Of a DNA stretch of 64,000 bases, positions 44,700-53,161 are shown piece after piece; position 1 is the stretch's first letter, and the number at the start of each line of letters is the position of its first letter. Location: positions 37,324,001-37,388,000 of the forward strand of contig JANJGN010000026.1 in assembly GCA_026770705.1 (NCBI GenBank), in the 5' to 3' direction. Position numbers and translations under genes: made by a program. Source of the stretch: Isurus oxyrinchus (taxonomy: Eukaryota). Under the pieces are notes generated by a model. It had not been told where the DNA came from. It did not search any database and was given only the letters and a program-made list of their open reading frames with translations.

Positions 44700-44759
44700 G
44701 AATGGCTCAAACTGAGGATGTTTCAAGGTCTCAAACTCCACCGATTGAGCTAGCAGGAC
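44700..44759 (-). pseudogene. tRNA-Lys-derived relic (5' half)
   Basis: gtcctgctagctcaatcggtggagtttgagac vs tRNA-Lys GCCCGGCTAGCTCAGTCGGTAGAGCATGAGAC. Confidence 0.6.
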
Positions 44760-45689
44760 CTGTAGTGATGACATGTCCATATCCCTTGTCACAGTGAGAT
44801 AACTGTCTGAATGCAATGGTAGAGAAGGAAATTGACCAAAGGTCCAATGCTTTCCCATCAATCATCAAATAAAATCATTTACAGCTTCTGCTTCTCAGCT
44901 ACACCTCCTTTCAAACATTGTGATCCATTTTCCTCAGGATTTGTTCCTGGATTTAATACTTACTTGCATTGTGACCACATTTTGAAATCAGATTCGCTTC
45001 AATCTCCAACACAAGTTGAATTGCAAATCTGATGGACAAACAATGGAAAACCAGTCAGTCCGTAACACAAATCACATGGTTCTCATTTCCAGATCCACCA
45101 CAGTCAGCTTTTAAATCAAAGGAAAGAATTTTGTAGTGAAAAGATTTAGAAAGTTGTTGTTGTTTTTATTTGTGATTCACTCACTCGGGTATTCTGTTAA
45201 TGATGCTCGGAGGTTTAGCGACTGGGATATAATCCACCTGTGTTTCCCTGAACCTGTGCTTGGTGTATTGGGAGGTTTAGCCCGGGTTGGAATATCTTGT
45301 GTCCCAGGGATGGGCAGTAACCTGCTGATTGAAGCTGCAGTCGCCGCTTTCTGCTGGCAGCAGGTGATTGGAGAGTGTGGGGCCAGAATATTGCTGCTTT
45401 TCTGCTTTTCCTGTCCCAGTCACTGTGGTGCTGGAGGAGGAGGAGCGAGTGGGTTTGCTTGAATCCAATGACTTCATAGATTTCCAATGGGTTAGACATA
45501 GGTACATGGTTGGTCTAATCGTTTTCTCATTAAACTTGACGCGAATATACATGACAAAAAAATTGCTTGCGTGGGAATTCACTAAATAACAGAAACGCTT
45601 GCCTCGATTGTGAAATATTTTCTTGCAGGTAATGTGGACCCTGACAACCCAGAGCTGTGGGGGAATGAACGCTGATAAAGTGAAAACTC

Positions 45690-45754
45690 CACCCATGGAT
45701 GGACTTGAACCACCAACCAAATAGCCAAATACTGAACAATTGCGCTTTAGAAAC
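45690..45754 (-). pseudogene. tRNA-Asn pseudogene (anticodon arm partly deleted)
   Basis: gtttct...gcgcaat...ggttggtggttcaagtccatcca matches tRNA-Asn; B-box retained. Confidence 0.65.
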
Positions 45755-46458
45755 CTATGGCAAAGCAATCTGGCAAGGTACCCACTTAAAACTTCAGATC
45801 GTTACTGCCACATTAGCAATTGTTCTCAAAAGTTTCCTTCTTCCAAACAAAAGGGTGGAACATTCATTGTGGATACATGGAAACAGTTGATTGAGGGATA
45901 AGCATTGACCAGGAAGCGGGGAGAACTCCCCTGCTCTTCTTTCAAATAGGCTCATGGCATCTTTTACATTCTGGTGCGTAAATCCCGTCATGTCTCTTCT
46001 TTCCCAACTGACTAGGAAAGGAGGGGTGTCACCAGACCTACAGTGAGTCTCGATTTCCTTGGCTCCCTCGTAGTTTTTCCTCTTCCTCTATTCTGAAGAC
46101 CAACGCAAGGTGATTCTGCAGCAGGTCTGCCATTTCCTCAGTTTCAATTACAATATCCTTGCACCTGTCTTCAGGTGATGTTAGCCAATCTTTGAGACGG
46201 GGAGTAAGTATGTTAATCTGCATCAATAATCCGGTTTTGGTGACTGCACAAACTGCTAATCGGCCTGCCCAGTGATGGTTGAAAATGGTTAATAACTTCC
46301 AGTCGTTAGTGTGTGGTGGAATGGCGGCTGCTTTTATTTTGTTGGATGTTATTCACCTTGACAAGAGATGACACGTGGCTGTATGATGCTGTTTTTGATA
46401 ACACAAGTAAATTAGCGAACTTCCCTTCACACTTAACTAACGGCTTTTGGCAAAGCTT

Positions 46459-46531
46459 CTTTTTTGCCGAACTTCGAATGAGGGACTTTCTGTGTGTTAG
46501 GTGCACATGATAATCACTACACCACAGAAAG
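46459..46531 (-). pseudogene. tRNA-Val(AAC) pseudogene
   Basis: tttctgtggtgtagtgattatcatgtgcacctaacacacagaaagtccc...ttcgaa is colinear with tRNA-Val-AAC; stems mismatched. Confidence 0.75.
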
Positions 46532-47959
46532 GACACACTGCTGAGATCACAATGGACCTGTCCACAATGTGAACCTGAGCCGCCATGCAGCAGCACTTTG
46601 GGTCTTTGTTTTGAAGAAATGGATTCAGCTGCTATAAATAGGAATGCTGGAGTCAGACTGATCCAACAATGTGATCATAAAATTACACAGGAGACATTAG
46701 GAGACAATTCGGCCCATCGAGGCTATGACAGCATTTTACAAAAAGCTTTCCATAACCTTGGTTTTTCTCGCTTTCTAGTCATTGTCCAGCTCCCTTTTGT
46801 AAACTGAGTGAAGAGAAACAATATTGAAAAAGGTGCAGGAGTTTCTGCAGTCCCCATGCGCACTGTGTGATCATTAACAAAGTTTCCCTGATCCAATGAC
46901 ATCAAGAGTTGGACTCGAGATTCTCATGTAGTTTTTGAACAAAAAAAATGTATTTATGCAGCTGATTTCATATTGAACTTTCAAAAGAAGTTTATTGAGA
47001 TCAAGCATGTCCTCATTTTTCTCAGTCGCTCTGTACAATCTAATTCCCCTTGCTGTACAACCTGTTACAGAGACTGTTATAGAAAAGAGGGAAAGGTTTG
47101 CTGCAGCTATACAAAGCCCTGGTTAGGTCACACCAGGAGGACTGTGAATAGTTTTGGTAAAAGCACCTGATAGAGGATCAATACTTGCCTTGAAAGTTTT
47201 AGAGGACCCGCATTGATTCTGTTGGTGGGTTTTGGAAATTGAAAGTTGTACATCCACAGCTTGTGGCACAATTTCCCCTCACTGTTCACTTCATGTTGAA
47301 CACACTCGATGCTGTTATTGGCTGAACAAATCTTCTGTGTTTTAACTAAAATCGCTGATACTCGGCGCTCCTGCTCCTGCCGTTTGGCCCTCATCAGGGA
47401 ATGTTGTTTTCTTGTTGCTGTGTGAACTCTCACAATGAACTGATACTGGAGTCCCTTTCCCCCGGTATCCACAAAATCCGTCACTTCTCTTCATCTTTCA
47501 TTCTCACTCGTTCATTCCCAGTTTGAGTCGGTTCTCCTTTCAGCCCCTTCAACAAATCCATTTGGATGGACAAGTGGCAGCTGGAATTTGATGGGAGGAA
47601 GTGTGAAGTGATTCATTTTGGTCGGAGAGGAGAGGAAACTGAAAATAATAGTTACAGTTTTAAAGGGGCTTCTTTGTTGCACAACGAGTGGTTTGGATCA
47701 GGAATGAATCAATTCAGTTCAGCACCACGAGGGGGTGGACACAGTTTTACCACTGCAAACTTCACTCACATTAGTTGTGTAGCTTCATCTTAAAAAGGTT
47801 CAGAGAGAAAAAGCAGGTTGGAAAGATGCAAGAGGAAATTGTTTCTTTCTGTTTGTTTTTTTCAGTGGAGACTGTTCCGTTACCAAGTCCCCATATGCTA
47901 CAAAGTGGAGGATGATTGAAATTTTCTGTCAAGGTAACAACAATTTCGGAATTGATCGT

Positions 47960-48027
47960 GGTGGCGAAGCCGAGCGGCTGAAGGCGCTGGATTTAAGCTC
48001 CAGTTTCTATGGAGGTGCGGGGTTTGA
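47960..48027 (+). pseudogene. tRNA-Leu pseudogene (AAG/TAG-type body, 3' truncated)
   Basis: ggtggcgaagccgagcggctgaaggcgctggatttaagctccagt; anticodon arm ctgga/tccag intact. Confidence 0.75.
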
Positions 48028-48239
48028 CAGAGTTTCAGACAGTTCATATTTTCAGTCAATTTAGCCAAATCCTTCTGTGTGTTCTCGGGACAAGGGCAGT
48101 ACTCCATTCTGGAGGAAAGATCGAAAAGAGGCAGGAGCAATTGCAGGGCAGCCAGGAAGAGGTGGGGCCACGTCTTCATTTTCTGCTATAGCCATTCTCT
48201 GATTTTATGTACAGAACATTAAGAGGCACATGGCGCCTG

Positions 48240-48321
48240 AGTACAGAACTGAGTTGCTCAAGAAATGGGTTGGAAATCGTTTGGATTTTCCTGATGTAGG
48301 TTTAAATCCTACCAAACTACA
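48240..48321 (+). pseudogene. tRNA-Ser pseudogene
   Basis: atggg..gaaatc..ttgg..tttcc....aggtttaaatcct.cc.aactac is colinear with tRNA-Ser-AGA. Confidence 0.55.
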
Positions 48322-51655: not shown

Positions 51656-51728
51656 CTGGCCCCAGATGGTATAAAACCATCAATGTTTGGGTTGACAGCT
51701 GCAATCACGAAACAAGATGCTACACAAC
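51656..51728 (-). pseudogene. Highly degenerate tRNA-Asn-like relic
   Basis: gctgtcaacccaaacattgatggtt vs GCTGTTAACCGAAAGGTTGGTGGTT. Confidence 0.4.
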
Positions 51729-51729
51729 T

Positions 51730-51795
51730 ACCCTGGTGACCTAATGGTTAGAAGTCAGTGCTCTCATCGCCCAGGTTTGATCCCCGGTCTCGCTG
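51730..51795 (+). pseudogene. tRNA-Glu(CTC) pseudogene
   Basis: ccctggtgacctaatggttag...gctctca.cgc...ggtttgatccccggtc. Confidence 0.7.
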
Positions 51796-51849
51796 TTGTG
51801 CAACAATATCATAATCAGAAATCAATTACTGATTGGAAAAAGTCTATCA

Positions 51850-52645
51850 CCCCCAAAACCTCATCCCCTTCCCAAGGCACCTTCCCATAGAATCGCAGAA
51901 GGTGCAAAACCTGCCCTTTTACCTCCTCCCTTCTCACCTTCCAAGGCCCCAAACACTCCTTCCAGGTGAAGCAGAGATTGATTTACACTTCTTGCAATAC
52001 AGGCTGTTGTATTCACCGCTCACAATGTGGCCTCCTCCACACTGGGGAGACTAAACACAGACCGACTGCCCGTTTTGCCAAACTTGTCGATAAGCATGAC
52101 CCAGGCCTGCCTGTCACTTGTCATTTCAATTCACCATTTTGCTCTCATGCTCACATTTCTGTCCTGGGCCTTCTACAATGTTCCAGTGAAGCCCAACACA
52201 AACTGGAGAACAGCACCTCATCTTCTCATAAGGCACTCTACAGCCTTCTGGACTCAACATTGAGGTCAATAAGTTCACATTATGAACTCTGCCCTCCATT
52301 TTAATTTCCCTGCAGCCCCCAACCCCCCCAAGTTCCAGTCTGCATCTTGTTCTCATGTTTTGATTTCAGAAAGCGCTGACCCTTTTTCTGCTATTAACAC
52401 ATTCTGCTATTTTGCTTCCAGTCAGTGCTGACCTTTGTTTAGATATTAACACATGCTTTAGTCTTTAATGATATCATAAACATTTCCCTTGACTTGTGTT
52501 CCATGACATCTTTGTCATTGAATCCCTCCTGACCTCCAACCTATCCCTGACCTTCTACTTTGCTCCATCTGCTCCACCCACCCTCGGCAGCAGCATAAAA
52601 CCCATCACATTTCTACCTCCCTTCAGTTCTGAAGAAGTCATATTG
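51850..52645 (+). mobile_element. Penelope-like 3' fragment (GIY-YIG) ending in a truncated hammerhead
   Basis: FQVKQR...CIHRSQCGLLHTGETKHR; agttCTGAAGAagtcat at ~52625; related fragment at ~40920-41160. Confidence 0.65.
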
Positions 52646-53015
52646 TCTGGAACAGAGTTAAAGCTCCACGTGAGTATTAAATAGAACTGGCAATGTCCGA
52701 GTTGGAGATTAAGAATTAAGAAATATGACATGAAAGTCATATGACATGTTGGTCAATTATTTCCCGTCATGAATATCTGCCATGTGCTGCCTTAAAAGGT
52801 TTGCAGGAACCACAGTGATTTGATTGGTGGGTTTTGGAAATTGAATTTTGCATTCCACAGCTTTTGGTACTATTTCACCAACCTGTCAACTTAATGTTCT
52901 AGCCAATGGCAATGGTTGTTTTAATTGGCTGAATAGGTCATTTTGCCTCTGGAAAAAGTGGGTTAAAATGGAAAAAAATGGCAAAAGTATTGTTTATCAA
53001 ACTGCAGGGGTAACC

Positions 53016-53087
53016 TCCCTGCTGGCCTCATGGCTAGGGTTCGTAACTTCTACTGCCGCGGCTCACATTCAATTTCTGGTTGATTAA
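53016..53087 (+). pseudogene. tRNA-Glu pseudogene
   Basis: tccctgctggcctcatggctagggttcg...gccgcggc. Confidence 0.6.
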
Positions 53088-53102
53088 AGCACAGTGATAA
53101 CG

Positions 53103-53161
53103 CCCCTGGTGTCCGAGTGGACAGGATTCAGCACGTTCACCGCCGGGGCCTTGTGTGGGAA
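53103..53161 (+). pseudogene. tRNA-Glu(TTC) pseudogene, T-arm deleted
   Basis: ccctggtgtccgagtggacaggattcagcacgttcaccgccggggcc...gtgtgggaa. Confidence 0.65.

Follow-up and report, generated by a model that had tools for sequence, protein, structure and literature searches.

What are decayed transfer RNA (tRNA) genes doing at the 3' end of a shark IgM cluster? The question is raised by a stretch of 64,000 nucleotides from the 4.98-Gb genome of Isurus oxyrinchus (C26:37324001–37388000, C numbers being contigs of this genome; hereafter the window), in which a cluster of zinc-finger (ZNF) genes (1.5–39.7 kb) is followed by the exons of an IgM constant region on the reverse strand (55.2–61.3 kb). 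An earlier note on this DNA, which placed both neighbours correctly, listed ten tRNA relics of seven isotypes on both strands in the interval between them (hereafter the zone). It considered them a dead genomic cluster, with some surviving B boxes, that may be or have been a chromatin boundary and may travel with duplicated immunoglobulin heavy-chain (IgH) clusters. As analysed here, the zone holds eleven pseudogenes that were duplicated from tRNA/ZNF arrays, copied along with the 3' end of IgM, and are now most probably functionless neutral passengers. This explanation is built on the identity of the relics, the homology of their flanks and gene order to intact arrays, their co-duplication with IgM, and the lack of constraint on their A and B boxes.

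Identity of the relics

ARAGORN finds 0 tRNAs in the window, and Rfam has no tRNA match there up to E = 10. ARAGORN with lowered thresholds is useless as evidence, giving from 23 to more than 200 predictions scattered over the window. Isotype profiles for nhmmer, built from intact tRNA genes collected in the same genome, recover all ten relics listed earlier, with the isotypes and strands given for them. Eight of the ten score between 18 and 37 bits (Asn 23, Val 21, Leu 33, Ser 21, Thr 28, and Glu 37, 18, and 25), whereas no score exceeds 14.3 in 11 control windows, shuffled or reversed. The Lys relic (13 bits) and the second Asn relic (Asn2, 12 bits) are borderline by score alone, slightly over the best control value of 11.6 (21 controls, enlarged library). 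Their identity is settled because their flanks align to array genes of the same isotype: for Lys, 10 of 12 and 22 of 40 flank matches are to such genes in the same position and strand, and for Asn2 five of six on one side, with paralogous Asn2 copies reaching 28 bits. An eleventh relic, a Glu (Glu0) at about 47331–47401, is evident from paralogues and flanks, so that three identifications (Lys, Asn2, Glu0) lean on this kind of support. When flanks of 260 bases are aligned, those of eight relics (Lys, both Asn, Val, Ser, and three of the four Glu) point to array genes of the same isotype and strand; Leu, Thr, and Glu1 have little or no flank support, yet are the top-scoring relics. As the earlier note had it, the relics are confined to this part of the window: no other reaches 9 bits or more with a library of Lys, Asn, Val, Leu, Ser, Thr, Glu, and Cys profiles, isotypes outside these eight being covered by general models only. 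The relics and one cassette flank are as follows, with identities given relative to intact genes.

44690..44758, minus strand: tRNA-Lys (CTT type) pseudogene; 48/66 identity; 13 bits; flanks predict Lys at the same place and strand
44836..45689, minus strand: 3' flank of the tRNA-Asn cassette, with homology to the flanks of intact Asn genes at other loci
45690..45754, minus strand: tRNA-Asn (Asn1) pseudogene with a 9-nt deletion; 49/65 identity; 23 bits
46459..46531, minus strand: tRNA-Val pseudogene; 50/73 identity; 21–23 bits; covariance-model E = 0.002
47331..47401, plus strand: tRNA-Glu (Glu0) pseudogene, the most decayed relic; 40/65 identity; paralogues 11–19 bits; Glu 5' and 3' flanks on either side
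47960..48023, plus strand: tRNA-Leu (TAG/AAG type) pseudogene, T arm mostly deleted; 33–44 bits
48241..48321, plus strand: tRNA-Ser pseudogene, B box without its cytosine; 52/80 identity; 19–21 bits
50364..50436, plus strand: tRNA-Thr pseudogene; 51/73 identity; 28–31 bits, 42 bits in two paralogues
51657..51731, minus strand: second tRNA-Asn (Asn2) pseudogene, head to head with Glu; 47/74 identity; 12 bits, paralogues up to 28; identified by the flank test
51730..51795, plus strand: tRNA-Glu (CTC type; Glu1) pseudogene, B box without its cytosine; 48/66 identity; 37 bits
53016..53087, plus strand: tRNA-Glu (TTC type) pseudogene; 47/72 identity; 18 bits
53103..53153, plus strand: 5' two thirds of a tRNA-Glu (Glu3), tandem partner of the Glu at 53016..53087; 25 bits; from alignments

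Overall, the relics are 62–77% identical to intact genes, and of 60 alignable CpGs 12 are retained while 32 are now TG, CA, or TA. The earlier note had made the tRNA identity depend on covariance-model hits; a custom model does detect Val (E = 0.002), Asn (0.015), and Leu (0.03), and others more weakly (all rough E-values), picking up only some of the relics because their stems are broken. A head resembling a short interspersed element (SINE), at 53827–53910, scores as high as the relics in this model. The paralogues of Asn1 are called tRNA-Asn(GTT) by both ARAGORN and Rfam. On these alignments the zone is a cluster of eleven tRNA pseudogenes, in which cloverleaf or promoter is broken and change appears neutral.

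Origin in tRNA/ZNF arrays

Positions 44836–45891 of the window align at 75–77% identity over about 1080 bp around intact Asn genes on C38, C42, C100, C146, and distal C26, and the flanks of other relics likewise match those of intact genes; the relic 3' ends carry neither CCA nor poly(A). Flank identity of about 75% over 1 kb bears out the earlier description of a dead genomic cluster rather than retrocopies. In two 80-kb stretches, C26:0.44–0.52 Mb and C38:0.45–0.53 Mb, tRNA-like elements (45 and 58, respectively) alternate with ZNF arrays (six and two). All 103 elements belong to the seven isotypes of the window, with a library that also contained Cys, Lys-TTT, and a second Val type; 31 score at least 60 bits and 28 are called by ARAGORN. 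The order Lys (minus), Asn (minus, about 1 kb on), Leu (plus), Ser (plus, about 300–350 bases on) is repeated in the two arrays, and the Leu-Ser spacer is homologous. Since these arrays alternate ZNF and tRNA genes, tRNA-ZNF adjacency, with half of the tRNA genes dead, is the normal state of an array. By flanks and gene order the relics are thus genomic duplicates of tRNA/ZNF arrays that hold intact genes elsewhere, and not retrocopies.

Short modules recurring near many tRNA genes were considered as shared upstream elements and rejected; they are isotype-specific cassette flanks (Glu 5', Ser 3'). Separate arrays of Lys-TTT/Val-TAC and of Cys, types unlike the IgM-linked array, were seen at C35:13.3–17.1 Mb, C14:120.9–126.4 Mb, C23:9.9–10.2 Mb, and C2:57.26 Mb.

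Co-duplication with IgM

At least 30 paralogues of the zone lie on C26:23–40 Mb, and more on unplaced contigs, with 78–99% identity. The exact IgM membrane-exon motif occurs 61 times, 37 of them on C26, where the median distance between copies is 280 kb; some of the unplaced copies may be haplotype duplicates. A zone match lies within 14 kb downstream of 55 of these, and the remaining six, examined individually, all have tRNA-derived elements. With eight of eight further IgM-type loci, tRNA-derived DNA is found downstream at all 69 loci checked, and the zone is co-duplicated with IgM. As much as 12 kb of the ZNF side, ZNF genes included, belongs to the duplicated block. The main families come out alike in trees built from relic flanks and from IgM 3' flanks; the trees disagree in part, which suggests gene conversion. 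When rooted on intact Asn flanks, family B branches first, from A plus C. Because the 69 loci are related by descent, they count for only one to three events, and the linkage records history without proving function.

Seven loci (24.04, 24.42, 27.16, 27.36, 32.31, and 37.55 Mb, and C152) have a different cassette (Asn/Leu/Ser), several with a tandem Val run and with genes scoring up to 54–58 bits. A shared Asn flank is in opposite orientation in these, which suggests inversion. Tandem sets of four to six tRNA-Val genes, with anticodons AAC, CAC, and TAC and a spacing of about 1.6 kb, were seen downstream of three IgM clusters (L170, L172, L175–L176), each gene copy having private changes. In the IgM copy at C26:25.30 Mb, CH4 and the relics are present and the membrane exons deleted.

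Two queries served to search for other heavy-chain types: the last constant domains of an IgNAR (P0025, whose identity comes from PDB matches) and those of an IgW-like protein (P0032, which we take to be IgW). These searches listed ten IgNAR-type, five IgW-like, and about 50 further IgM-type exons (C38, C42, C49, C100, C20, and others). The IgM-type loci among these make up a second family, located on other contigs (L207–L215 and L235–L237 on C42, C38, C20, C49, and C76), with IgNAR clusters on the same contigs. In the five loci examined, the protein encoded by membrane exon TM1 is 88–90% identical to that of the window, the flanking DNA is about 70% identical, and a tRNA-Ser(TGA) lies about 4.3 kb past TM1 in every case. 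In the four with more than 10 kb of sequence this proximal Ser starts a dense array of 12–22 elements. No array DNA was found within 20–30 kb of four IgNAR clusters (of the ten listed) or three IgW-like ones (of the five listed); each IgW-like locus has a single 14–17-bit match, which is a SINE head. The expectation that the relics travel with duplicated IgH clusters therefore holds for IgM (61 of 61 and eight of eight) and fails for IgNAR (zero of four) and IgW-like clusters (zero of three): in this genome the array linkage is specific to IgM and not a general flanking element of IgH clusters. The relic state is also present in a second species, in which Logan contigs cover the Val and Thr relics with 16/306 and 13/304 differences; these contigs are too short to reveal IgM linkage. 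Literature searches found no mention of an IgM-tRNA-array linkage; subscription papers and supplements may describe one.

B boxes, constraint, and position

The B-box consensus is GGTTCGANTCC, and loss of its internal cytosine abolishes TFIIIC binding, while the boxes of functional extra TFIIIC (ETC) sites are conserved across species (PMC3395662). If TFIIIC binding were important here, the B boxes would be expected to change more slowly than the flanks. Rates were compared on block-specific trees of 12–30 copies, with expectations split by A/T, G/C, and CpG sites; Glu3, incomplete and found in nine copies, was left out, and copies lacking a block were dropped for that block. Observed versus expected changes were 95 versus 84.0 for the A box, 90 versus 72.3 for the B box, and 536 versus 422.9 for the body, and no single relic has a significant deficit (lowest P 0.3). 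One common tree gives the same rate result. It also gave spurious low deep-branch counts for Glu0, Glu1, and Lys, probably through gene conversion between blocks, and was replaced by the block-specific trees. By these counts the A and B boxes of the relics show no constraint.

The three motifs that the earlier note quoted as surviving B boxes are all present (45711 on the minus strand, 48299, and 51774), of which only the Asn one keeps its cytosine. Just one of the 11 relics in the window, Asn1 (45701–45711), retains a B-box core; at five of the 11 relic positions no copy has one; and in four IgM-linked copies (38.63, 31.03, 25.31, and 29.57 Mb) no relic core remains in the aligned blocks. With unconstrained boxes besides, a reading of these motifs as a sign of function is not supported.

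The position of the zone argues the same way, since the duplicated block includes ZNF genes and relics occur without IgM. Sets of relics are flanked by ZNF genes at 30.81 Mb, where 60 kb contain no IgM exon, and at 28.70 Mb, where 20 kb contain none; other relics lie 34–43 kb 5' of V, in 80 kb that are free of ZNF. Together with the unconstrained boxes, this speaks against the proposal that the zone is a present, dedicated boundary.

Several observations weigh against neutral passengers. At least one relic B-box core is present in 25 of 31 copies, with Asn1 keeping its core in 15 of 27, Leu in 17 of 28, and Thr in 14 of 29. Family B retains two or three cores, and its B-box CpGs have one change versus 4.7 expected (P = 0.05, common tree). 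A loose B-box core occurs five times in the zone versus 1.9 expected, only one of these being a relic's own box; the strict core occurs once. A near-intact Leu at C26:29.33 Mb has three differences in 82, all CpG transitions, where 5.5–8.6 are expected (P = 0.03–0.2). In the second family an intact-looking tRNA-Ser with an invariant B box is present in all five copies, and three different cassettes adjoin IgM in three lineages with adjacency maintained. Finally, the rate test would be blind to a function needing any one surviving box, and it is parsimony on trees affected by gene conversion.

The near-intact tRNA-Leu(TAG) itself (C26:29326220–29326301) scores 60.8 bits, with full pairing and a downstream T run, about 6 kb from an IgM membrane exon; it is a candidate for a live or recently converted gene.

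Timing and mechanism

If the relics are neutral passengers, an ancestral IgM cluster would have stood at the edge of a tRNA/ZNF array, and every IgM duplication would have taken along a piece of that array. The carried tRNA genes, redundant with many intact copies, may have been methylated and then decayed, while inversions and deletions would have made the cassette adjoining IgM differ by family. Parsimony ancestors are already damaged in Ser, Thr, Asn2, and Glu, including a 6-nt deletion in Glu1 common to all copies seen in the alignment. The ancestral Leu is near intact (78/82, the reference itself being a descendant), and family B Asn copies are 11–16% from intact genes. The expansion has a root-to-tip depth of about 0.1 changes per site. 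From this pattern of damage, most of the genes would have died before the expansion, and Leu and Asn during it.

Other explanations

The broadest alternative, tentative at best, would give the arrays a part in the history of IgM. IgM, unlike IgNAR and IgW, would be anchored at an array edge; the cassettes would have driven minicluster multiplication, or a proximal intact tRNA gene would insulate the 3' end in one family, or both, with the window belonging to a family that lost it. If true, it would supply a mechanism by which the IgM of cartilaginous fish came to be organised in many clusters. Its two halves can be weighed separately.

That the array was the vehicle of IgM amplification, by unequal recombination between cassettes in both orientations, is rather doubtful, if compatible with neutral passengers. 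IgM-type matches number more than 100 versus ten IgNAR and five IgW-like, and only IgM adjoins the array; IgM copies are found in both orientations (29 forward, 32 reverse), and family-specific deletions and the apparent inversion are located in the array. But of about nine family breakpoints, located by eye, just two (44737 and 47366) are within a relic, no tRNA continues past the first of these, and IgNAR, on the same contigs as arrays, has been amplified less.

It is less likely still that intact tRNA genes beside IgM form, or once formed, a functional 3' boundary or chromatin hub that survives in the second family and was lost here. All 69 IgM loci checked adjoin array DNA, through the three cassettes mentioned, but they share descent from a single ancestral arrangement or a few, and their number is therefore not independent evidence. 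The proximal tRNA-Ser(TGA) of the second family scores 49–65 bits in the four full-length copies and is followed by a T run, but its 13 changes match the 13.2 expected from the flanks (without CpG correction). The IgM family of about 60 loci expanded with dead genes, and IgNAR and IgW-like clusters have no array.

That the relics of the window act at present as a TFIIIC insulator, separating IgM from ZNF chromatin, is very improbable. The zone does sit between the ZNF arrays and the IgM 3' end, and has one intact core (45701–45711) and the B box of the SINE head (53889); in yeast, tRNA genes and B-box-only ETC sites act as barriers, and in human cells they have been linked to insulation (PMC12409998). 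Set against this, the A and B boxes are unconstrained, two of the three quoted motifs miss the internal cytosine, the four copies listed above have no relic core in the aligned blocks, and the ZNF genes are within the duplicated unit, tRNA-ZNF adjacency being ordinary in arrays.

Retrocopies, SINE heads, or chance look-alikes, suggested by the blank ARAGORN and Rfam results and by the tRNA-derived SINE heads that do occur here, have a negligible chance of explaining the relics and are refuted by flank homology, with both flanks matching those of intact genes of the same isotype, paralogues passing ARAGORN and Rfam, and scores above those of shuffled controls.

Comparison with known systems

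Vertebrate tRNA gene clusters evolve by birth and death inside segmental duplications. Like the zone, they mix intact and decayed genes of several isotypes on both strands, in kilobase cassettes shuffled by duplication and inversion; unlike them, the zone belongs to a fixed seven-isotype array that accompanies, at its 3' end, a rearranging antigen-receptor gene present in many copies. Another likeness is Region-2 of the zebrafish chromosome 4 long arm (PMC11075544), where C2H2 ZNF genes, tRNA genes, and an expanded immune family share one repetitive region, the family being NLR there and IgM miniclusters here. Region-2 also has 5S and snRNA genes, heterochromatin, and maternal expression (PMC11075544); the shark locus is likened to it by gene content.

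Elasmobranch IgH miniclusters (PMC12227049) share the V-D-J-C arrangement, up to about 100 loci per isotype, and T-cell receptor (TCR)-type V exons between IgH clusters, for which there is one candidate here, and by its minicluster layout the window would be assigned to a cartilaginous fish; the main text of that paper does not contain the words "zinc", "ZNF", or "tRNA". The tRNA-gene insulators and ETC sites (PMC12409998, PMC3395662) resemble the zone in having tRNA-derived A and B boxes between two kinds of gene, but need an intact, conserved B box, whereas ten of the 11 relics have lost the core and their boxes are unconstrained.

As a collection of dead tRNA genes the zone is ordinary in itself; its use lies in its setting, which marks shark IgM clusters as residents of tRNA/ZNF arrays. 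The relics could serve as neutral markers to sort the roughly 100 IgM clusters into families and order their duplications. The linkage makes it testable why there are about 100 IgM miniclusters versus a handful of IgNAR and IgW, and IgM families with intact and with dead tRNA neighbours offer a natural experiment for the insulator idea.

Window layout and minor observations

The remaining features of the window are as follows.

1494..39677: eight C2H2 zinc-finger arrays, the nearest ones inside the duplicated block
48352..49990, minus strand: insertion of long interspersed element (LINE) type with reverse-transcriptase-like open reading frames, separating the Ser relic from its own 3' flank
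53827..53910, plus strand: tRNA-derived SINE-like head with a perfect B box (strict motif at 53889); covariance model 14.9 bits; common to IgM 3' flanks; not a relic
55190..61345, minus strand: IgM constant region, CH1–CH4 and membrane exons; TM1 at about 55360–55500, 2.2 kb from the nearest relic

The LINE-type insertion is absent from older families (gaps in paralogues), and the Ser 3' flank continues from about 50050. Where the window has the tandem Glu pair (53016..53087 and 53103..53153), family B has a single Glu gene. Between the last relic and IgM, at 53279–53535, is a 66-bp tandem repeat of about four copies; its copy number varies across paralogues, and it sits at the junction of the alternative cassette family.

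The CH4 exon of the window matches mu chains in PDB, and some 10 kb beyond the window there is a heavy-chain variable (VH) exon that has recombination signals. About 29 kb 5' of this VH, at C26:37426600–37427100 on the plus strand, is an apparently frameshifted V-type exon with a 23-spacer recombination signal, presumably TCR-like by its motifs; further 23-spacer signals on the minus strand lie past it. (TCR-type V exons between IgH clusters are described in PMC12227049.)

Among the ZNF genes, broken frames at 19900–22400 resemble what we take to be integrase and polymerase of a long terminal repeat (LTR) retrotransposon. The ZNF array second nearest to the relics (37815–38743) is split across several frames and is therefore likely a pseudogene; those at 7639–8382, 16858–17484, and 30692–31387 are single open frames.

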